NCBI GenBank assembly: GCA_964483345.1
Contig: CAZABN010000002.1
Span: 8,351-72,350 of the forward strand
Source: an uncultured Solirubrobacteraceae bacterium
GTDB lineage: Bacteria; Actinomycetota; Thermoleophilia; Solirubrobacterales; Solirubrobacteraceae
Reading direction: 5' to 3'
DNA length: 64,000 nucleotides
Position 1 is the stretch's first letter; the number at the start of each line of letters is the position of its first letter. Under the pieces are notes generated by a model that worked only from the letters and a program-made list of their open reading frames with translations, was not told the origin of the DNA and made no database searches. Positions 13,271 to 30,327 of the stretch are shown here, piece after piece. The position numbers and the translations under genes are program-made.

Positions 13271-13465
13271 TTGGCCCCGGCACTACCCCCAGGATTGTGC
13301 GATCGCTGCGTGCACCAGCGGCTGGTGTCCAACTCGCGAGGCTCGGTCTTCTCCCTGTGCGAGCGTTCGCGCACGCAACCGGAGTCCTTCGCGCGCTACC
13401 CGCCGCTGCCCGTGCTCGCGTGTGCCGGGTTCGACCCGGAGCCCAATCCGCGGACGGCCGGTTAG
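13271..13465 (+). CDS. Small Cys-rich (CxxC...C...C) hypothetical protein; start codon uncertain (TTG at 13271 or 13292)
   Basis: The in-frame tail of a long junk ORF has high GC3 and reads LCDRCVHQRLVSNSRGSVFSLCERSRTQPESFARYPPLPVLACAGFDPEP. From memory this pattern resembles a widespread small uncharacterised protein family. No ATG or GTG start is available. Confidence 0.4.
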   Translation: MAPALPPGLCDRCVHQRLVSNSRGSVFSLCERSRTQPESFARYPPLPVLACAGFDPEPNPRTAG

Positions 13466-14055
13466 CGGACGGTGAGCGTCCCCTTCATCCCGGCCATCTC
13501 GTGGCCGGGAACCGAGCAGTAGAAGGTGTAGGTCCCGGGCGGCAGGTTGAGGGTCAGCACCTTCGTGCCTCCCATGAAGGTCGGCGTGTGGCCGAGCACC
13601 TTTCCCTGCGCGTTGGCGATCGTGACGTTGTGGTCGAGCGGGGAGTGGTTGGTGAAGTCGATCGTCACGTGACTCGAGCCGGCACTGAGCGCCGTCGTGT
13701 TGTAGGCGAGCTGCCCCTGGGGGTTGGCGGAGAGCTGGAGCGGGCCGTTGGTCGGCGCGGCATTCACCGGCGTGACCTGCGGCGCCACGCCGTTGGTCAC
13801 CACCGGGGACTTGTATGGCGGCACGCCCGGCGGTGTCTTGGCCGTCGCGACCGCCATCGCCACCGCGAACGCCACCAGCGCGGCGGTGCCGGCGGTCAGC
13901 AGTCGGCCCTGGCGCGCCGATGAGGGGAAGCGCTCGCTGCGGATCCCGATCGCCGAGACGAACACCGCCCAGGCCACGAGAAGGCCGGCGGCGATGAAGA
14001 ACAGCGTCTTGCTTCGATCGTGGAAGACGGTGGCTGCGACCAGGGCGTGGAACAC
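13462..14055 (-). CDS. Membrane-anchored cupredoxin (plastocyanin/azurin-like type-1 copper protein)
   Basis: Two N-terminal TM helices, a Pro-rich linker and a C-terminal T1Cu ligand set: H in SPLDHNV, then YCSVPGHEMAGM (C-x2-H-x4-M). Confidence 0.85.
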   Translation of the reverse strand: MFHALVAATVFHDRSKTLFFIAAGLLVAWAVFVSAIGIRSERFPSSARQGRLLTAGTAALVAFAVAMAVATAKTPPGVPPYKSPVVTNGVAPQVTPVNAAPTNGPLQLSANPQGQLAYNTTALSAGSSHVTIDFTNHSPLDHNVTIANAQGKVLGHTPTFMGGTKVLTLNLPPGTYTFYCSVPGHEMAGMKGTLTVR

Positions 14056-14395: not shown

Positions 14396-15691
14396 TCAGA
14401 GCTGCCCGAGCAGCACCTCGGCGGCGGCGTGGCCGCTCAGCGCCGCGCTCTCCAGGGTCGCCGGCCAGCCGGTCGCGGTCCAGGCGCCGGCGAGCACGAG
14501 GCCTTCGAGGGCGGTGGCGGGCCCGGGCCGCAGCGCCGCTGTCCCGGGTGACGCGCGGAACGTGGCGGCGTGCTCCTTGGTCGCGCTGAAGCTCTCGACG
14601 CGAGCATCGCGCGCAGCCGGCAACAGCTCGGTCAGCGCAGGCAGGTAGCGCTCGCGCAGCGCTGCCGTGCTCATCCCCATCTCGGCGCGCGCGCCCGACA
14701 GCGAGACGGCGAGGTACTGGCCCGCGGTCCAATCCAGAGGGGTGCGGTCGAAGACGTACTGCACGGGCGTGTCGACACCCGCCGCGAAGCGGTGCTCGAG
14801 CACGCGGCGGTCGTAGACGACATGGAGGTTCACGATCGGCGAGGATCGCAGCGCTCCGGGCCAGGCGGCCCCTCGCAGCGCCTCCGCCGGCGCCAGCGCC
14901 GCCGCGCGGTCGTGCGGCACCGCGATCACCACGCCGTCCGCGCCCAGCCAGGAGTCCGCGCCGACGACCGCGAAGCGGTCGCCGATCGAGGTCACGCGCG
15001 CAACCGGCCAGCGCAGGTGAACGGTGACGCCGGCGCTCGCCAGGGCGCGCACCGCGGGCTCGCCGATGATCGCCTGCAGCGGTGCGCGATGCAGACCGAC
15101 GTCACCGGCCGCGGCGTCGGCGAGCAGGCCATGCTGGAAGACGAACGCGCCGAGCGCGAGCGAAGCCTCGGCCGCGGGCAGGTTGAGCGTCGGCAGTGCG
15201 ATCAGGTCCCACAGCGCGGCGATCGCGCGCGGGCTCTGCCCGTGGTCGGTCAGCCACTCGCCGAGCGTGCGCGAGTCGTCGAGCGGCGCTCGCCCGAGCG
15301 CGAGCGCGGCACGTCCCGCGGAGATCCGCTCACGCAGCGAGAGATGCGAGTAGCGAAGCAGCGCGCCGGCCAGATGAAGCGGTGGGCGCGCGCCGCTGCG
15401 GCGCAGTCTGACCGTGTCGCGGCCGGGTGCGAGCACGGGAATGTCGAGCCGCGGCTGAAGCTCGACCAGCGGATCGCTGCCGAGCCGCTCGAGCAGGGCG
15501 CGGTAGGCCGCGCAGCAGCGCAGGAAGACATGCTGCCCGTTGTCGAGCCACAGATCGTCACGTGCCACCGAGTAGGCAGCGCCGCCGAGCCGGGGGCGCA
15601 CCTCGACGAGCGTGACGGCGGCGCCGCCCGCGGCGCAGTCCAGCGCCGCGACGATGCCCGCGACGCCGCCGCCGACGACCACGACGTTCAC
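14396..15691 (-). CDS. hpnE: Hydroxysqualene dehydroxylase (FAD amine-oxidase/phytoene-desaturase family)
   Basis: The GTG start at 15691 overlaps the hpnD stop (GTGA). VNVVVVGGGVAGIVAALDCA dinucleotide fold. Position directly after hpnC and hpnD. Confidence 0.8.
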   Translation of the reverse strand: MNVVVVGGGVAGIVAALDCAAGGAAVTLVEVRPRLGGAAYSVARDDLWLDNGQHVFLRCCAAYRALLERLGSDPLVELQPRLDIPVLAPGRDTVRLRRSGARPPLHLAGALLRYSHLSLRERISAGRAALALGRAPLDDSRTLGEWLTDHGQSPRAIAALWDLIALPTLNLPAAEASLALGAFVFQHGLLADAAAGDVGLHRAPLQAIIGEPAVRALASAGVTVHLRWPVARVTSIGDRFAVVGADSWLGADGVVIAVPHDRAAALAPAEALRGAAWPGALRSSPIVNLHVVYDRRVLEHRFAAGVDTPVQYVFDRTPLDWTAGQYLAVSLSGARAEMGMSTAALRERYLPALTELLPAARDARVESFSATKEHAATFRASPGTAALRPGPATALEGLVLAGAWTATGWPATLESAALSGHAAAEVLLGQL

Positions 15692-16500
15692 CGGCCCGCT
15701 CCGAGCAGGCTGCGGGCAGCCACGGCGAGCTTGGTCGAGGTGGGCAGCGCGACTCGCCTTTGCAGGATCGCCTGCGGGTCGTCGGCGATGCGCTCGAGCA
15801 GACGGCGGTAGATGCCGCTCATCGCGAGCACGCAGGCGGCGCTGCGGCGGTCGAGCAGCGCCGTCAGCTCCAGCCCGCGTGAATACCACTCGCGTGCTCG
15901 CCCGGCTTCGAAGGCGACCAGCGGCCCGATCGTCTCAGGACTCGGCGCGCCGAAGCGCTCGAGATCCTCGGCCGGCAGATAGGTTCGTCCGTGCTCGGCG
16001 TCCTCGCGCACGTCGCGCAGGATGTTGGTCAGCTGGAGCGCGACGCCGAGGTCGTCGGCAAGTCGACCCGCGCGGGGATCGTCGCTGCCGTAGACGGAGA
16101 CGCACAGGCGCCCGATCGAGCCGGCGACTCGCCGGCAGTAGACGACCAGTTCGTCGAAGCTCGCGTAGGTCACTCCGTCCACGTCCATCCGCACACCCTC
16201 GATCAGGTCGAGAAACGACTCGCGCGGAAGCGGGAAGCGACGCTCGGCGCGGTGCAGGCCGGCGAGCACGAGATCGTCCGCAGGTGACTCGCCGAGCGAC
16301 GTCGCGGCTTCGTCGAGCAGCGCGCGCTTGCGCTCGGCGGGCAGGGTGCCGTCGCCGATGTCGTCGATGCGCCTGGCGAAGGCGTAGATCGCGAACAGCG
16401 CCTCGCGCTTGGGCGCCGGCAGCAGGCGCATTCCGTAGTAGAAGTTCGCGGCCTGGCGCCGTGTGATCCGCGCGCAGTACCGGACGGCCGCATCGCTCAT
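15688..16500 (-). CDS. hpnD: Presqualene diphosphate synthase (squalene/phytoene synthase family)
   Basis: YCARITRRQAANFYYGMRLLPAPKREALFAIYAFARRIDDIGD plus a second Asp-rich region (NILRDVREDAEHGRTYLP). Confidence 0.85.
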   Translation of the reverse strand: MSDAAVRYCARITRRQAANFYYGMRLLPAPKREALFAIYAFARRIDDIGDGTLPAERKRALLDEAATSLGESPADDLVLAGLHRAERRFPLPRESFLDLIEGVRMDVDGVTYASFDELVVYCRRVAGSIGRLCVSVYGSDDPRAGRLADDLGVALQLTNILRDVREDAEHGRTYLPAEDLERFGAPSPETIGPLVAFEAGRAREWYSRGLELTALLDRRSAACVLAMSGIYRRLLERIADDPQAILQRRVALPTSTKLAVAARSLLGAGR

Positions 16501-17336
16501 CCGCCGGCGGCCCGGACGAGCAGGCGGACGATTGCTCCGAGCGTGCGCCGGCGCGTCGGTCGCGGAGTGAGCGCGAGCACCTCGTAGTCGGCCAGCGCGA
16601 TCGCCTCCAGCGCCGCGCGCCCACCGCCGGCGTAGCCGGCGACCGCGAGTCGCGGCCAGCCGCGCAGGCTCGCCACGAGCGCGTCGCCCTCGCGGAAGAG
16701 CGCCGCCGTACGCGCGGCCTCGAGTGCGAGCACGCGCCGCAGCCGGTCACCGACGCGATCCGCCGACAGATCCTCGATCGTGCAGCCGTGGCGGGCGAGA
16801 TCCTCGAGCGGGAGGTAGACCCTCCCACGAGCGAGGTCCTCGCGAACGTCCTGCCAGTGTTCCGTCAGCTGCAGCGCGGTGCACACGGCGTTCGACAGCG
16901 CGACGCGCTCCGCGGTCGCGGCGCCGAACACGCACAGCACCAGCTCGCCGACCGGATCCGCGGAGAGATGGCAGTAGCCGAGCAGTGCGTCCCAGGTGTC
17001 GTAACTGTGGACGCGCTGGTCGACGCGGTTGGCCTCGATCAGCCGTTCGAACGGCTCGCGCGAAAGCTCGCATGCCGCGATCGTTGGCGAGAGCGCGCGC
17101 AGCAGGGGATGCGTGGCGGTGTCGGCGAACGCCCGGTCGAGCTCCGCCGAAAGCCAGTCGAGGGCCGCCAGCCGGTCGCCCGGGGCCTCGTCGCCGAGCT
17201 CGTCGACAAGTCTCGCGAAGCCGTAGATCGCCAGCAGGTGCGTGCGGAGCGGCGCCGGGAGCAGTCGCGACGCGACGGGGAAGTTCTCCGTAGCGGCGCG
17301 GGCCATGATCGGTTCGGGGCTTGTGGGTATGGACAT
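16497..17336 (-). CDS. hpnC: Hydroxysqualene synthase (squalene/phytoene synthase family)
   Basis: From the ATG at 17336: MSIPTSPEPIMARAATENFPVASRLLPAPLRTHLLAIYGFARLVDELGDE, then HWQDVREDLARGRVYLP. Four-nt overlap with hpnD. Confidence 0.85.
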   Translation of the reverse strand: MSIPTSPEPIMARAATENFPVASRLLPAPLRTHLLAIYGFARLVDELGDEAPGDRLAALDWLSAELDRAFADTATHPLLRALSPTIAACELSREPFERLIEANRVDQRVHSYDTWDALLGYCHLSADPVGELVLCVFGAATAERVALSNAVCTALQLTEHWQDVREDLARGRVYLPLEDLARHGCTIEDLSADRVGDRLRRVLALEAARTAALFREGDALVASLRGWPRLAVAGYAGGGRAALEAIALADYEVLALTPRPTRRRTLGAIVRLLVRAAGG

Positions 17337-17542
17337 CGGCTGAGCCGCGGGCGCGGCGGGTGCGTGCAGCGTTACACACGGCGGCCGGCGGGCGCAGCAC
17401 AGGCGCAGACCGCCGAGAATCGCCGAGCACGGGGCGATCCCGCAGCCGACGCGCGAGCGCCGCGTCGAGGACGCCCCGAACCGGGGGCGGAGGTGGGAAG
17501 CTAGAGTTTCGATCAAACCACCCACGATGGAGGCGAACGAAG

Positions 17543-17946: not shown

Positions 17947-19683
17947 TCAGAACACCGGCGTCTCGGTGAAGCGGCCCCAGACGTCCTGGAGGGCCTGCAC
18001 GAGCTCGCCCTCGCTCGCGCGGGCGCGCGCGGCGTCCAGCAGCGGCTCCATCAGGTTGTGCGGCGTCTGCGCCGCTGCGCGCAGCGCCGCGAGGCCGGCC
18101 TGCACCGCGGCGTCGTCGCGCCCTGCGCGCACGGCCGCGAGGCGATCGAGCTGCCGGCGCTCGAGCGTCGGGTCGATCCTCAGCGTCGCGATCGGGCGGT
18201 CGTCCCCCGCCGTGAAGCTGTTGACGCCGACGACGACCCGTTCGCCGCTGTCGATGCGTCGCTGCAACTCGAAGGCTGCGTCGGCAATCTCGCGCTGCGG
18301 GTAGTTGCGCTTGACGGCTTCGATCATCCCGCCCAGCTCGTCGATGCGCTGGAAGTAGTCGTAGGCCTGCCGTTCGATGCGGTCGGTCAGCGCCTCGACG
18401 AAGTAGCTGCCGCCGAGCGGGTCGACGGTGTTCGTCACACCCGTCTCGTGCGCGATCACCTGCTGGGTGCGAAGCGCGACCTGGACGGCTTCCTCGGTGG
18501 GTAGCGCGAGTGCCTCGTCGTAGCTGTTGGTGTGCAGCGACTGCGTGCCGCCGAGCACTCCCGCGAGCGCCTCGATCGCCGTGCGCGTGATGTTGTTGAG
18601 CGGTTGCTGGGCGGTCAACGAGACGCCGGCGGTCTGGGTGTGGAAGCGCATCAGCCACGAGCGAGGATCGCGCGCGCCGTAGTGCTCACGCAGCTCGCGC
18701 GCCCAGATCCGGCGGGCAGCGCGGTACTTCGCGATCTCCTCGAAGAAGTCGATCTGCGCGTTGAAGAAGAACGACAGGCGCGGCGCGAAGCTGTCGACCT
18801 CCTGCCCGCGCGCGATCTGCTCCTCCACGTAGGTGAAGCCGTTCTTGAGCGTGAAGGCGAGCTCCTGTGCCGCGGTCGCACCGGCTTCGCGGATGTGGTA
18901 GCCGGAGATCGAGACCGGGTGCCAGCGGGGCATGTTGGCCGTGCACCATTCGATCAGGTCGCCCTGCAGGCGAACCGCGGGCTCGATCGGGAAGCACCAT
19001 TCCTTCTGGGCGATGTACTCCTTGAGGATGTCGGCCTGGATCGTCCCGGCGAGCTCCGCCGGCGCGACGCCGCGTGCCTGAGCGGCGGCGACGAAGAAGG
19101 CGAGCATGATCGCCGCCGGGCCGTTGATCGTCATCGACACGCTGACCTCGCGCAGGTCGATGCCCGCAAAGAGATCCGCCATGTCGTCGACCGTGTCGAT
19201 CGCGACGCCCTCGCGTCCGACCTCGCCGCGGCTGAGCGGCGAATCCGAGTCGTGGCCCATCAGCGACGGCATGTCGAATGCCGTCGACAGCGCGTGCTGG
19301 CCGCGCCCCAGCAGGTAGCGAAAGCGCTCGTTGGTCTCGACCGCCGTGCCGAAGCCCGCGAACTGGCGGACCGTCCACAGCCGCCCACGGTACATCGAGG
19401 GATAGACGCCGCGCGTGAACGGGTACTCGCCGGGCAGGCCGATCTGGCCGCGCTCGGGCAGGTCGGTCTCCGTGTAGAGCGCGCGGATCTCCTCGCCGCT
19501 GAGGCTCAGGAAGGGGCCGGGTCTCTCGGTCGCCGCGTCGCCGTTCGTGGCGTGCTCGCGCGCTGCCGCAGAGGCGTCCGCGGCGCGGCTGCGATCCTGC
19601 GCATCACCGGGCGATGGGGGGATCGCTGCAGTTTCGCAGCATCGACGCGGCGCCGGCGGCGGAGTGCGAGCAGCCGGCCTCAC
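17947..19683 (-). CDS. Methylmalonyl-CoA mutase family, catalytic (TIM-barrel) subunit without B12-binding domain; start uncertain
   Basis: [41 protein letters not shown]...[17 protein letters not shown]...SMTINGPA are hallmark MCM motifs. The protein ends before any B12-binding domain. There is no in-frame ATG near the domain start, so the GTG at 19683 is used provisionally. Confidence 0.85.
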
Positions 19684-19765
19684 GGATTCGCGTCCCCGGG
19701 CGTTTGTGCAGTGTGGACCGAGCCGCTCACGCGCCACTATGGTCCGTTGCGATGAGCAGGACCGC

Positions 19766-20692
19766 ATGCGCACGGACACCGCGATGACGACCACCAGCGC
19801 AGCCGCGAGCGGCGCGGGCGTGCGGCGCCTCGAGGATCCCAAGGTGGTGCTTGCGATCATCGTCACGACGCTGCTCTGGGCCTCGGCGTTCGTGGCCATT
19901 CGCACGGCGCGCACGCACTTCGCTCCCGCGCCGCTTGCGCTCGGCCGGCTGCTGGTCGGCGCCGTGGCGCTCAGCGCGCTGATGGTCCGCCGGCGCATCG
20001 CGCTGCCGGCGAAGCGCGAGCTGCCGGCGATCATCGTCTGCGGCGTGCTCTGGTTCGGCGTCTACAACGTGGCGCTCAACCAGGGTGAGCGGCTGGTCGA
20101 CGCCGGCACCGCGGCGATGCTCGTCAACGTCGCTCCGATCATGATCGCCGTGCTCGCCACGTGGGTGTTGCGCGAGCGCCTGTCGCCGTGGCTGCTGGGC
20201 GGGCTGGGCGTCGCGTTCGCCGGAGCCGCTGTGATCGCCGTCAGCTCGGCTCACCATCACGGTGGGCTGGGCGGTGTGCTGCTGTGCGTGCTGGCGGCGG
20301 CCGTTTACACCGTGGCCGTGATCGTCCAGAAGCCCGTGCTCGCGCGCGTCTCGCCGATCGCCGTGACATGGGCCGCGTGCCTCGCCGGGGCGGTCGCCTG
20401 CCTGCCGTTCTTGCCCGGGCTCCTGTCCGATCTGCGTGCGGCGCCGGCATCGAGCACGCTCCTCGTCGTGTATCTCGGTGCCGGACCCACGGCGATCGCC
20501 TTCACGACCTGGGCCTACGCACTCTCGCGCAGCACGATGGCGCGGCAGGGCGCCACGACGTACCTCGTGCCGCCGCTCGTGATCGCGCTCAGCTGGCTCA
20601 CGCTCGGCGAGGTGCCCGGCGTGGTCGCGATGGGGGGCGGCGTGCTCTGCCTGGCCGGAGTGGCGCTCACGCGCCGGCGAGCGTCGCGCTAG
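19766..20692 (+). CDS. EamA/DMT-family transporter
   Basis: Ten-TM protein with two EamA repeats ([11 protein letters not shown]..., ...[17 protein letters not shown]). Start at ATG 19766, or alternatively 19784. Confidence 0.85.
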
Positions 20693-25238: not shown

Positions 25239-25693
25239 TCAGGCGGCGTTCACGGCCGCGCTGAGCTCCTCGACGAGCGCGTCCGCAAGGCGCTCCACGG
25301 AGCGCGCGACCGAGGGCGACAGCGGGCTGCCCGGCTCGAACTCGTTCGCCTCGATCCCGTAGACGATCACCTGCGGCGGCAGGCGGCCGAGCGCGCGAGC
25401 CAGCTCGAGCGCGTCGGCGAGTCCGAGGCGGTGCGTCGAGACGCCGAACAGCTCCGCCGGCAGTGGTTGCTGCGCGGCGTCGAGCCGGTGCAGCGTGCCC
25501 GGCTGGGCGCCCGAGCGGACGGCGTCGACGATCCACAGCGCCGGCGCGCCCTCGCAGGCCTCGATCAGCGTGATCGGCTCGCCCTCGTGCTCCACGACCT
25601 CGACGCCCGGCGGGCGGCGCGCGCCAACCGCGGCCGCCACGGCGAGTCCCGCCGCGTCGTCGCCACGCCAGCGGTTGCCGATGCCGATCAGCC

Positions 25694-25697
<4 letters not shown>
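25239..25697 (-). CDS. [NiFe]-hydrogenase maturation endopeptidase; non-canonical start (CTG?)
   Basis: [20 protein letters not shown]...WIVDAV...[11 protein letters not shown] matches the HybD/HoxW-type protease pattern (GIGN..DD, D, H). There is no ATG or GTG in frame for more than 100 codons upstream. CTG codons lie at 25697 (overlapping the hyhL TGA) and 25691. Confidence 0.75.
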
Positions 25698-26984
<1,287 letters not shown>

Positions 26985-26992
<8 letters not shown>

Positions 26993-27767
26993 CGCGGGAT
27001 CCCGCGCCCGCGAACGGCTCGGCGCTCGCGTTGAAGGTGTGGAAGAGGTGGTCGATCACGGTCTCGGTCGTGTCGAGGTCGCGCATCTGGCGCGTCAGCG
27101 CCGAGACGTTCGGCGTCTCCATCGGCCCGAAGCAGCCGTAGCAGCCGCGGTTGTAGGACGGGCAGATCGCGCCGCAGCCGGCGTGCGTGACCGGTCCGAG
27201 ACAGGGCGTGCCGTGGGCGACGGTCACGCACACCGTGCCGCGTCGCTTGCACTCGGTGCAGACGCTGGTCGTGGCGATCTGCGGGCGCCGCCCGGCCAGC
27301 TGGGCGCCGATCACCTCGAGCAGCTGGTGCTTGTCGATCGGGCAGCCGCGCAGCTCGAAGTCGACGGCGACGTGCTCGGAGATCGGCGTGGAGGTGGCGA
27401 GCGTCGAGATGTGCTCGGGCTGGGCGTAGACGAGCGCGACGAACTCGTCCACGTCGGCGACGTTGCGCAGCGCCTGGATCCCGCCCGCGGTGGCGCAGGC
27501 CCCGATCGTGACGAGGCGGCGCGAGGCGCTGCGAACCTTCTGGATGCGCTCGCAATCCTCCTCGGTGGTGATCGAGCCCTCGACCAGCGAGAGGTCGTAG
27601 GGACCACGGACGGTGGCGCTCGTGGCCTCCGGGAAGTAGGCGATCTCGACCTCGCCGGCGAGCGCCAGCAGCTCGTCCTCGCAATCGAGCAGCGAGAGCT
27701 GGCAGCCGTCGCAGGAGGAGAACTTCCAGACCGCGAGCTTTGGCTTGCGGCGCGTCGCCGTACTCAC
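26985..27767 (-). CDS. hyhS: [NiFe]-hydrogenase small subunit (delta; Nuo 20-kDa-like)
   Basis: [18 protein letters not shown]..., [12 protein letters not shown] and a distal Cys cluster ([11 protein letters not shown]...[15 protein letters not shown]...GCYGC). Confidence 0.9.
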
Positions 27768-28612
27768 AGCTCACGCACCCCCATCAGCGTCTCGAGCTTG
27801 TCGTAGCTGTAGACCGCGCCGTCGCGGCAGACGAGCGTCGGCCCGAGCTGGCAGTGCCCGCAGTGACCGACGGCGCAGCGCATGTTGCGCTCCATCGAGA
27901 GGTAGATGCGCTCGGGCGCGACACCGCGTTCGCGCAGCGCCACGACGCTGAAGTGCATCATCACCTCGGGACCGCAGACCAGCGCGATCACCGACTCCGG
28001 GTCGAACGGCGCGCCGTCGATCAGCTTCGGCACGACGCCGACCTTGCCCTCCCAGCCGCTCGCGGCCGCGTCGACGGTCACATCGACGTTGAGCTTGCCG
28101 CGCCGGCGCAGCGAATCGAGCTCATCGCGGAACAGCAGGTCTCCCGGGGTTCGCCCGCCGTAGAGCAGCGTCACCTCGGGGTAGTCCTCGCGGGCGAGCT
28201 CGAGCGCTTGGACCGCGGTGCGCAGCGGTGCGAGACCAACGCCGCCGGCGACCACGACGACGTCGTGGCCGGCCGCCTCGCGCACCGGCCAGGTGTTGCC
28301 GAACGGTCCGCGGACACCCAGCACGGCGCCGGGCTTCGCCTCGCAGATCGCGGCGCTGACCGCGCCGACGGCGCGGACGGTGTGCACGAGCAGGCCGTCG
28401 TCGGCGCCGGAGACCGAGATCGGAATCTCGCCGATGCCGAAGGCGTAGAGCATCGTGAACTGGCCTGGGCCGGGCGAGATGCCCTCGCCGGCGAGCGGCT
28501 CCAGCGACAGCGTCCAGGTGTCGGAGGTCTCGCGGCGCCGCTGCGTGACGCGGAACGGCCGCGGCACCATCGCGGCTGCCATGGGGGCTGCGAGCTCAGC
28601 GCTGGCCGACAT
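27764..28612 (-). CDS. hyhG: Hydrogenase gamma subunit: FAD/NAD(P)-binding oxidoreductase with C-terminal 2Fe-2S (AsrB-like)
   Basis: FNR-like fold ([20 protein letters not shown]) plus [15 protein letters not shown]. An alternative start lies at 28582. Confidence 0.88.
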
Positions 28613-29066
28613 GGCCGTAGACGTCGAGCAGACGCAGGCGCGTCCATTGCAGGCGCTCGATCAGCGTCTGGGCGAAGCGGGAGACGAGCTCGTAGCCGAG
28701 CTGCGGATCGGCGTCGCACTTGCCGCGCAGGCAGACGCCGTCGAACGCCGTCGCGCGTACCGCCGTCAGCGCGTGCGCGTCGAAATGCCAGCGATGGGGT
28801 TCGAACAGCCACGACCAGCCGAGCACGTCACCGGCCTCGAGCGTCTCGATCACCAGCGGCCCGCTGTTGGGGGCGTAGGCCTCGATCGCGATGCTGCCGT
28901 GGCGGAGGAGGTAGAAGGCGTCGGCCCGATCGCCCTCGCGGAAGATCAGCGCGCCGGGCTCGAACTGCACGTTCGAGCCGCATCCGGCGACCAGGTCGAT
29001 CGTCTCCGGGCGCAGGCCGGCGAAGAAGGGCGCGTCGGCCAGGATCTCGGCAAGCGTCGTCGTCAT
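28596..29066 (-). CDS. Stand-alone cyclic-nucleotide-binding (cNMP/CAP effector) domain protein
   Basis: 156 aa with FFAGLRPETIDLVAGCGSNVQFEPGALIFREGDRADAFYLLRHGSIAIE...GDVLGWSWL...RATA. No HTH follows. The ATG at 29066 overlaps the hyhB stop (ATGA). Confidence 0.8.
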   Translation of the reverse strand: MTTTLAEILADAPFFAGLRPETIDLVAGCGSNVQFEPGALIFREGDRADAFYLLRHGSIAIEAYAPNSGPLVIETLEAGDVLGWSWLFEPHRWHFDAHALTAVRATAFDGVCLRGKCDADPQLGYELVSRFAQTLIERLQWTRLRLLDVYGHVGQR

Positions 29067-30193
29067 ACAACCACCCCGTCGGTGTCGCGGATTGCAGCCA
29101 GCTCCTCGGTCACGTCGATGCCGACCGGGCACCACGCGATGCAGCGGCCGCAGCCGACGCAGCCGGAGCTGTCGAATTGGTCGTACCAGGTGCCGAACTT
29201 GTGCGTCAGCCACTGGCGGTAGCGCGAGCGTCCGGAGCGCCGGACGCTGCCGCCGTGCAGGTAGGAGTGCTCGACCGAGAAGCAGGTCTCCCAGACCCGC
29301 ACGCGCTCGGCCTCGGTGCCGGCCAGATCGCTGACGTCCTCCACGCTCGTGCAGAAACAGGTGGGGCAGACCATCGTGCAGTTGCCGCACGTCAGGCAGC
29401 GCTCGGCCACCTCGTCCCAGCGTGGATTCTCGAGGTTGCGCGCCAGCAGGTCGCGCAGGTCGCCGGACTCGACGGTGCGCGTCATCTTCGCGGCCGCTCC
29501 CTGCACCGCGGCGGCCGCCGCGTCGAGATCCACCGGCGCGGCGGCGCGTTGCGGCAGCTCCCGCAACAGCTCGGCGCCGCGATCGGATCCGGCGCGCGCG
29601 AGGAAGCGATGCTCGCCGTCGAGGATCTCGCTCAGCACGAGGTCGCAATCGCCGCGGATCTTTGGGCCGCCGCCCATCGAGACGCAGAAGCAGGTGTCGG
29701 CCGGTTCGAAGCAGTCCACGGCGACGATGAAGGCGCCGTCGCGGCGGACCGCGTAGTCGGCCTCCCGATACTCGCCGCCGATCAGCGCGCGGTCCTGGAT
29801 CGCGATCGCGCTCAGCTCGCAGCCGCGCACACCGAGCAGGGCCAGCGGCTGATGCTCGGTCTGGTCGGTCTCGAGCTCGAAGCCGTCGCCGTCGCGGCGC
29901 GCGCGCCAGATGCGCAGGCGCGCGGGCAGCAGGAACTGCTTCCACGAGTGCGGCCCGACGGCGTAGCCGAAGCGCGCCTCGTCCTCGCGGCGCGTCACGC
30001 GGTAGCGCCCCGGCGCCTGCTCGTCCCCGTAGCCGATCGGGAGCTCGGCGGCCGAGTGGAGGTCGTCGTAGACGATCGCGCCGTCACGCACCCTGGGACC
30101 GAGGACTCGGTAGCCACGCCCGCGCAGAGCCGAAACCAGCGCTTCGAGCGCGTCGGGTTCGAGAACGGCTGTGTCGAGCTCGGCCAATGCCAC
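29063..30193 (-). CDS. hyhB: Hydrogenase beta subunit: 4Fe-4S dicluster protein (AsrA-like)
   Basis: CLTCGNCTMVCPTCFC and CVGCGRCIAWCPVGI ferredoxin motifs. Start at GTG 30193 or TTG 30187, the latter 5 nt after an AGGGGAG SD. The first 32 codons of the listed ORF look spurious. Confidence 0.85.
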   Translation of the reverse strand: MALAELDTAVLEPDALEALVSALRGRGYRVLGPRVRDGAIVYDDLHSAAELPIGYGDEQAPGRYRVTRREDEARFGYAVGPHSWKQFLLPARLRIWRARRDGDGFELETDQTEHQPLALLGVRGCELSAIAIQDRALIGGEYREADYAVRRDGAFIVAVDCFEPADTCFCVSMGGGPKIRGDCDLVLSEILDGEHRFLARAGSDRGAELLRELPQRAAAPVDLDAAAAAVQGAAAKMTRTVESGDLRDLLARNLENPRWDEVAERCLTCGNCTMVCPTCFCTSVEDVSDLAGTEAERVRVWETCFSVEHSYLHGGSVRRSGRSRYRQWLTHKFGTWYDQFDSSGCVGCGRCIAWCPVGIDVTEELAAIRDTDGVVV

Positions 30194-30327
30194 TCCCCTG
30201 AGGTTGCCCGAGACTAGCGCAGGTTTGCATCCGTGCACAGCGCCCCGCGCGCTTCGGAAAGACCGCAGTGTTGAACGGCGGCGACGCAACGCTCATCAGT
30301 GCGGCTCGCCGCGCCGATGCTTGGTGT

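Follow-up and report, generated by a model that had tools for sequence, protein, structure and literature searches.

Why does a hydrogenase operon carry in its middle a gene for a small protein that has a cyclic-nucleotide-receptor fold and no other domain? The question is raised by a 64,000-nucleotide stretch of DNA (contig CAZABN010000002.1, positions 8,351 to 72,350; the whole stretch is called the window here) from an uncultured Solirubrobacteraceae bacterium, in which such a gene lies between hyhB and hyhG, the two diaphorase genes of an operon for a group 3b NAD(P)-linked [NiFe]-hydrogenase. The product is referred to as the CNB protein, after its cyclic-nucleotide-binding (CNB) fold. 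With a probability of roughly 60%, it is a non-catalytic accessory (fifth), regulatory subunit, or a tightly bound partner, of the HyhB-HyhG diaphorase half of the bacterial enzyme. The gene is widespread, dispensable, already noticed and uncharacterised, and the idea of such a subunit has been put forward for HoxI, a non-orthologous protein in another class of hydrogenase.

A CNB fold without an output domain in a conserved slot

The CNB gene runs from window position 28596 to 29066 on the minus strand and encodes 156 amino acids followed by a stop codon. The original prediction, which was made from the window sequence, gave exactly these coordinates without the strand, and the peptide that it quoted, FREGDRADAFYLLRHGSIAIE ... 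RATA, is contained in the translated product. The neighbours on the two sides are HyhB and HyhG by Pfam and NCBIfam, in agreement with its placement of the gene between the beta and gamma genes of a group 3b-type operon. The predicted start overlap is also present, as the ATG (29066..29064) overlaps the hyhB TGA in the form ATGA (...GTT GTA TGA; hyhB ends at 29063) and couples the two genes translationally. The overlap claimed for the 3' end is conditional on the choice of the hyhG start, because the first hyhG ATG (28612) gives an overlap of 17 nucleotides with the CNB gene, whose TGA occupies 28598..28596, while the next ATG (28582) leaves a gap of 13 nucleotides. Production in stoichiometric amounts with the enzyme, another part of that prediction, may follow from the gene overlap. 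The GC content of the three codon positions (0.71/0.47/0.92) is the same coding signature as in hyhB and hyhG.

The sole Pfam domain of the protein is cNMP_binding (PF00027), which covers residues 33 to 114 with an E-value of 1.5e-14 and 54.1 bits against a cut-off of 27.5. An AlphaFold2 (AF2) model based on an alignment of 81 orthologues (pLDDT 90.2, pTM 0.83) predicts an N-terminal helix A, an eight-stranded roll, a short helix B (residues 110 to 119) and a long helix C (residues 121 to 151 by DSSP). Foldseek matched the model to many CNB structures with a probability of 1.0, and the top PDB matches were the effector domain and dimerisation helix of Mycobacterium tuberculosis CRP and Corynebacterium glutamicum GlxR; the alignments to these two proteins, 145 to 150 columns long, include helix C. 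CRP, GlxR and the FNR effector domains share the fold, long dimerisation helix included, with a template-modelling (TM) score of about 0.73 over 146 columns, and R138 and Y150 are invariant in the orthologues. The window protein differs from the CRP/FNR transcription factors in that the C-terminal winged helix-turn-helix (HTH) is absent, together with the canonical cAMP contacts and the three-Cys N-terminal cluster of FNR. No HTH was found by the Pfam scan or in the AF2 model, in which the chain stops right after helix C, at residue 156. The original description of a bare CNB barrel with no output domain therefore holds.

Two further structural comparisons are relevant. The best full-length match is Gmet_1532 of Geobacter metallireducens (PDB 3mdp; TMt 0.91), a stand-alone CNB protein from structural genomics, of the same size and also with no output domain. 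Among the PDB sequence and fold matches listed, none is a hydrogenase complex with a subunit of this kind.

A homologous protein search returned 3164 relatives of about 155 amino acids, and when a single genome of each species was scanned, at least 574 contained a close homologue. At the best 80 loci, the slot is kept in 80/80 as hyhB-CNB-hyhG-hyhS-hyhL wherever the contig extends, usually with the protease gene next. These loci span about 12 phyla, as taken from the record titles: Actinomycetota, Chloroflexota, Acidobacteriota, Planctomycetota, Pseudomonadota, Armatimonadota, Zixibacteria, Ignavibacteriota, Bacteroidota, Binatota, KSB1 and Verrucomicrobiota. Plasmid annotations of Burkholderia thailandensis and Rhodococcus qingshengii show the same gene order. 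Of 79 loci, 60 have a predicted CNB start that overlaps the stop of hyhB, and in a further 13 a gap of at most 30 nucleotides separates the two genes. When the window proteins are compared with those of 78 loci, the median identity is 56.6% for the CNB protein, 57.1% for HyhB, 55.9% for HyhG, 69.9% for HyhS and 64.0% for HyhL, so that the CNB protein and the two diaphorase subunits have evolved at the same pace.

Two single loci are of separate interest. On plasmid p1 of B. thailandensis (L001:3302-4772), genes for CBS-domain, universal-stress and STAS-domain proteins precede the five-gene hydrogenase operon, and hypA and hypF follow it; with a host that can be cultivated, this portable hydrogenase island (locus tags JMY07_RS29260-29285) is a possible experimental model. 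Other cultivable carriers are Paraburkholderia phytofirmans OLGA172 and Frankia casuarinae CcI3 (Francci3_4499). In one actinobacterial genome (G140:C155:52652-53072), the Hyh-linked CNB gene matches as two pieces with a 5-nucleotide overlap (model positions 2-102 and 113-153), which suggests a frameshift or a pseudogene.

The rebuilt pocket and the conserved cysteines

The canonical phosphate-binding cassette (PBC) of cAMP- and cGMP-binding domains reads G-E-[LIV]-[AG]-[LIV]...R-[ST]-A, where the Glu contacts the ribose 2'-OH and the Arg contacts the cyclic phosphate. In a profile alignment with both CNB domains of the cGMP-dependent kinase PKG I, the cassette G-E-L-A-I-L-x-x-x-x-R-T-A pairs with G83-W84-S85-W86-L87-F88-E89-P90-H91-R92-W93-H94-F95 of the window protein. 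The PBC Glu is thus replaced by W84, the Arg by W93 and the Ser/Thr (Thr in this pairing) by H94. Among the 81 orthologues, G83, S85, W86, L87 and P90 are invariant, W84 is present in 80/81 and W93 in 64/81, and the adjoining R92 is found in only 57/81; the family motif of the pocket is G-W-S-W-L-x-x-P-Y. Gmet_1532 has a cassette of similar shape (G-V-S-S-L-x-x-P-Y) but lacks both Trp residues and the cysteine set of the window protein.

The replacements are conserved across the orthologues, and the pocket accordingly differs from those of functional cAMP/cGMP-binding CNB domains; judged from the alignment, it is conserved, rebuilt and aromatic, and not decayed. Since Trp takes the place of both the Glu and the Arg that contact the cyclic nucleotide, the input is probably something other than canonically bound cAMP or cGMP, and canonical binding of either is unlikely. 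The original prediction of a link between cAMP or cGMP and H2 metabolism is not upheld by these residues. The prediction had also named, as a combination that would count against it, loss of the ligand-binding residues and absence of the gene from related operons; the residues have indeed gone, but conservation of the gene is strong.

Three cysteines, C29, C112 and C117, are the other conserved feature. Among 127 family representatives (clusters at 50% identity), C29 is present in 79/80 of those with C112 versus 21/47 of those without it. A phylogeny-aware test of Cys29/Cys112 co-loss had no power, with only one to three independent pairs on supported branches, for which reason the raw association, and with it a possible functional coupling of the two residues, is treated as a lead. 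The two could be near in space, because the fold topology brings the beginning of strand 1 next to where strand 8 ends. Cys112 lies at the junction of strand 8 and helix B, roughly at the position of Cys122, the fourth cluster ligand of FNR, which we take to be a positional analogy. The protein differs from FNR-type O2 sensors in that only C29, C112 and C117 are conserved and the N-terminal Cys-rich extension is absent.

A more specific proposal is that the Cys29/Cys112(/Cys117) set binds an Fe-S cluster or a metal, or makes a redox-active disulfide. The CNB protein would then be an FNR-like O2 or redox sensor detached from DNA binding and plugged directly into the enzyme, where it would act as a post-translational gate on electron flow through the HyhBG diaphorase in aerobic soil bacteria. 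We regard this proposal as speculative and rather unlikely.

The copy on the R. qingshengii plasmid lacks Cys29, Cys112 and Cys117, and it (L002:5959-6423) lacks Trp84 as well. Together with the sister operons of family f40 (loci L087-L089), in which the gene is missing, these residue losses look like stepwise decay in one lineage.

Proposed attachment to the diaphorase, dispensability and rival explanations

Natural fusions were sought with a HMMER scan of 1.84 billion representatives, of which the top 150 were inspected. Two fusion clusters were identified. P0161 (542 amino acids; two full-length members on two contigs) consists of HyhB followed by the CNB domain, and P0252 (468 amino acids; a cluster with 10 full-length members) consists of the CNB domain followed by HyhG, with the identical protein on contigs of three samples, always between hyhB and hyhS. 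Fusions to both neighbours place the CNB protein with the HyhB-HyhG module, a placement that is suggestive only, because a single indel can fuse overlapping adjacent genes whether or not their products are in contact. The idea that the CNB protein is a split-off piece of a normally fused HyhB, which had been named as a possible flaw of the original prediction, was rejected, as 80/80 orthologues are stand-alone proteins of 150 to 179 amino acids and the two fusion clusters are rare exceptions.

Members of the CNB subfamily were also encountered at a distance from hydrogenase genes. Stand-alone paralogues in Streptomyces and another actinobacterium (L003:5983-6438; L102:6856-7347) lie by genes for CBS-domain, PNPOx-type and tandem universal stress protein (USP) products and by narGHJI, a neighbourhood of hypoxia/stress type with no hydrogenase. 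Tandem proteins with two, three or five copies of the domain are represented by P0121 (840 amino acids), P0134 (532 amino acids) and P0122-P0130 (300 to 348 amino acids); the gene for P0122 adjoins a Cus/Czc-type RND efflux operon, not a hydrogenase.

Operons lacking the gene are common in one phylum. Of 401 evenly sampled Actinomycetota genomes, 35 have a HyhB-type beta subunit (E < 1e-100). The CNB gene adjoins hyhB in 17 of these 35 operons; in 14, as checked on the sequence, hyhB is followed directly by hyhG with no space for an extra gene; and the further four, all from one family, have no adjoining CNB match. Among 251 Acidobacteriota genomes, 13 have HyhB, and the CNB gene is present in 12/12 evaluable loci. 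In a tree of concatenated HyhL, HyhS, HyhG and HyhB from 70 operons, the gene-less operons form at least four separate well-supported groups, one of which (family f40, genomes of 5 to 6.5 Mb) is sister to the Rhodococcus plasmid operon. Because these groups nest separately among carriers, repeated loss, at least four times over, would be the simplest history.

The subunits of the window enzyme are homologous, by NCBIfam, to the beta, gamma, delta and alpha subunits of Pyrococcus furiosus sulfhydrogenases I and II and of Mycobacterium smegmatis Hyh. To our knowledge, the P. furiosus enzymes have no gene between beta and gamma. M. smegmatis Hyh is the only bacterial 3b enzyme with physiological data and has the four-gene form, with the consecutive tags MSMEG_3931 (beta), 3930 (gamma), 3929 (delta), 3928 (alpha) and 3927 (protease) and so with no gene between beta and gamma (PMC2799521); the window operon otherwise has the order of MSMEG_3931-3927. 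The CNB protein is accessory and dispensable for catalysis, since both this enzyme and about half of the actinobacterial operons do without the gene.

That an NAD-linked hydrogenase can have a CNB-type subunit has been on record since 2005, according to the passages of PMC12319191 and PMC3189943 in which Burgdorf et al. (2005) is cited. The subunit is HoxI of the soluble NAD+-reducing [NiFe]-hydrogenase (SH) of Cupriavidus necator (Ralstonia eutropha) H16, a group 3d enzyme of composition HoxFUYHI2. HoxI is a CNB-domain dimer on the HoxFU diaphorase and is termed regulatory; moderate salt is enough to detach it, and some SH enzymes do not have it (PMC3189943, PMC12809855), such as that of Hydrogenophaga (PMC12809855). 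Its dissociation occurs at 150 mM KCl and pH 8. In the passage concerned, PMC12319191 credits it with NADP binding, again with reference to Burgdorf et al. (2005). Like the window protein, HoxI is small, stands alone as a CNB fold without an output domain, and has its gene in an operon for a cytosolic NAD(P)-linked [NiFe]-hydrogenase; both are facultative, HoxI is tied to the diaphorase side, and its cassette is also non-canonical, with His in place of the Arg. The two also differ. HoxI, taken from pHG1, has 23% identity to the window protein by BLASTP and 17% to the family profile, and the hhalign probability of 94% reflects generic CNB homology. It keeps the PBC Glu, is without the GWSWL motif and the cysteine set, and is encoded at the operon end after hoxW, whereas the window gene lies between two diaphorase genes; its partner is the Nuo-type HoxFU and not an AsrAB-type HyhBG. 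The window operon is of the group 3b type (hyhB-X-hyhGSL-protease) and not a group 3d hoxFUYHW(I) operon. Orthology was rejected, and on sequence comparison the two proteins are analogous recruitments of one fold. pHG1 itself does not appear among the 40 plasmid matches listed from 235 matching records.

The gene embedded in 3b operons has been mentioned for Frankia, as a 'small transcriptional regulator' (PMC11879354), for Rhodococcus equi (PMC13332983), and for the Methylocapsa-type methanotroph 'M. acidophilus' 29, where it is named HoxI (PMC12319191). In the literature searched, these passing mentions are not accompanied by any characterisation of the protein. The original prediction was right in this respect and in expecting similar neighbourhoods, which turn out to be widespread, but the gene had already been noticed.

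Taken together, the conservation of the slot across phyla makes an accessory or regulatory subunit the best reading, as originally predicted, while the Trp residues in the cassette speak against the cAMP/cGMP part of that prediction. With a dimerisation helix present and a DNA-binding domain absent, the CRP-type effector domain would most likely form a homodimer that acts on the enzyme itself, much as HoxI2 acts in the Cupriavidus soluble hydrogenase on its HoxFU diaphorase. The most plausible input would be a redox-related ligand, namely an NAD(P)H-type nucleotide or a nucleoside, or the thiol or metal state of Cys29/Cys112(/Cys117). As output, the CNB protein would most plausibly modulate activation, or the passage of electrons between NAD(P)(H) and the [NiFe] site, in bacteria exposed to changing O2 levels. 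Several observations weigh against a subunit of the diaphorase half. About half of the actinobacterial operons function without the gene, and the M. smegmatis enzyme has the four-gene layout (PMC2799521). Overlapping neighbours such as these are easily fused by one indel, with no contact required. A comparison of operons by gene presence found no indels and, across all four subunits, only five scattered residues, of which HyhB has one and HyhG two, so that no indel or residue set of HyhB or HyhG tracks the gene, and a docking site was not found. The fold is also not specific to hydrogenases, because family members occur apart from them, by USP, CBS and nitrate-reductase genes or as tandem repeats.

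Three other explanations were considered. The protein could be a genuine cAMP/cGMP receptor that ties hydrogenase activity to second-messenger levels, as the significant Pfam cNMP_binding match and the best structural neighbours, cAMP-bound CRP and GlxR, would allow; with Trp and His at the contacting positions of the cassette, we consider this very improbable. Other ligands are known for CNB domains whose cassettes are altered, as in the regulatory subunits of trypanosome protein kinase A (PKA R) crystallised with inosine, which appear at rank 20 among the fold matches. A role in transcription would follow the wording used for Frankia: an HTH-less CRP-like module could act in trans on a DNA-binding partner or on RNA polymerase and so control the operon. 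Homology to CRP/FNR effector domains and the stand-alone paralogues by stress and hypoxia genes are consistent with such a role. It is distinctly unlikely, however, for a protein with no HTH, and a fixed slot between the diaphorase genes and not at the operon edge, start/stop overlaps and fusions to the enzyme would be atypical of a transcriptional regulator.

The last explanation is a maturation or assembly factor for HyhB-HyhG that holds the apo-subunits or assists insertion of FAD or Fe-S clusters and stays outside the finished enzyme. The gene is dispensable in many lineages and is taken to be co-transcribed with the structural genes, and the conserved cysteines could handle a metal or a cluster, all of which such a factor would accommodate. 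On the other hand, the stable fusions to HyhG and HyhB imply that lasting attachment to the mature subunits is possible, dedicated hydrogenase maturation genes usually lie outside the structural block, as they do in the plasmid loci, and we know of no precedent for the CNB fold as a cofactor-insertion chaperone. This explanation appears unlikely to us, and a regulatory or accessory subunit of the diaphorase is preferred.

Group 3b hydrogenases are among the commonest hydrogenases in soil bacteria, where their presumed role is fermentative H2 production in hypoxia. The model enzymes, the Pyrococcus sulfhydrogenases and the M. smegmatis Hyh, do not have the CNB gene, so that current models comprise four subunits. 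If a true fifth subunit occurs in most Acidobacteriota and Chloroflexota operons and in many of those of Actinomycetota, the regulation or re-activation of the enzyme would be unstudied in most environmental carriers. The rebuilt pocket would, in that case, add a new class of ligand to those of the CNB fold, and the subunit would be relevant to the expression of O2-exposed NAD(P)H-linked hydrogenases for cofactor recycling. The window gene itself is an ordinary member of a family that was already noticed.

The host operon and other features of the window

On the minus strand, the operon has the order hyhB, CNB gene, hyhG, hyhS, hyhL and maturation protease gene (Table 1). All four hydrogenase subunits have sulfhydrogenase Shy/Hyd families as their best NCBIfam matches, which assigns the enzyme to group 3b (HyhBGSL). 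The scores fall under the equivalog cut-offs, which is to be expected of bacterial members so distant. HyhL contains the motifs RxCGxC and DPCxxC (DPCISCATH in the sequence).

Table 1. Positions of the operon genes and of selected elements of the CNB protein in the window
Feature	Position	Strand	Basis
hyhB, beta, AsrA-like 2x[4Fe-4S] diaphorase subunit	29063..30289	-	Pfam Fer4_22 1.4e-31; NCBIfam ShyB 5.7e-40, HydB 5.7e-38
CNB-fold (cNMP-binding-like) stand-alone protein, 156 aa, proposed accessory subunit of the diaphorase module	28596..29066	-	Translation; Pfam PF00027; AF2; Foldseek
Cys29 codon, just ahead of strand 1	28980..28982	-	81/81 Hyh-linked orthologues; 100/127 family representatives (50% identity clusters)
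Remodelled phosphate-binding-cassette equivalent, residues 79-99, GDVLGWSWLFEPHRWHFDAHA	28770..28832	-	Profile alignment to PKG CNB domains; 81 orthologues
Cys112-Leu-Arg114-Gly-Lys116-Cys117, start of helix B	28716..28733	-	C112, R114, K116 in 81/81; C117 in 74/81
Long C-terminal helix, residues 121-151, equivalent of the CRP dimerisation helix	28614..28706	-	DSSP on AF2 model; Foldseek
hyhG, gamma, FAD/NAD(P)-binding and [2Fe-2S] diaphorase subunit	27764..28612	-	Pfam NAD_binding_1 and DHODB_Fe-S_bind; NCBIfam PRK08345, ShyC, HydG
hyhS, delta / small subunit	26985..27767	-	Pfam Oxidored_q6; NCBIfam HydD/ShyD 1e-47 to 1e-48
hyhL, [NiFe] large subunit	25694..26992	-	Pfam NiFeSe_Hases; NCBIfam ShyA 1.6e-75, HydA 6.9e-68
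Hydrogenase maturation endopeptidase	25239..25697	-	TIGR00072, residues 182-324 of the 331-aa longest open reading frame; domain start ~25691

Two of the starts call for comment. The longest open reading frame (ORF) of hyhB begins with TTG at 30289, but homologues align only from about residue 38 to 43, so that a GTG near 30193 is the likely true start. The TIGR00072 domain of the protease begins directly at the hyhL stop (window 25688-25700), and the sole long protease ORF with a standard start extends upstream by about 180 codons, in a different frame through hyhL, which makes the real start codon uncertain. Neither hyp genes nor a DosR-type regulator were found adjoining the operon; a response regulator of NarL/LuxR type lies 22 kb from it.

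Elsewhere in the window, two genes of the squalene/phytoene-synthase family followed by a gene of flavin amine-oxidase type (14396-17525, minus strand) form an HpnC/HpnD/HpnE-like set for squalene synthesis, and a cupredoxin gene is located at 13462-14055. An ORF resembling methylmalonyl-CoA mutase occupies 17947-20034 on the minus strand; its real start is probably further downstream, because about 170 N-terminal amino acids of the longest reading form an extension of low complexity that is rich in Arg and Ala.

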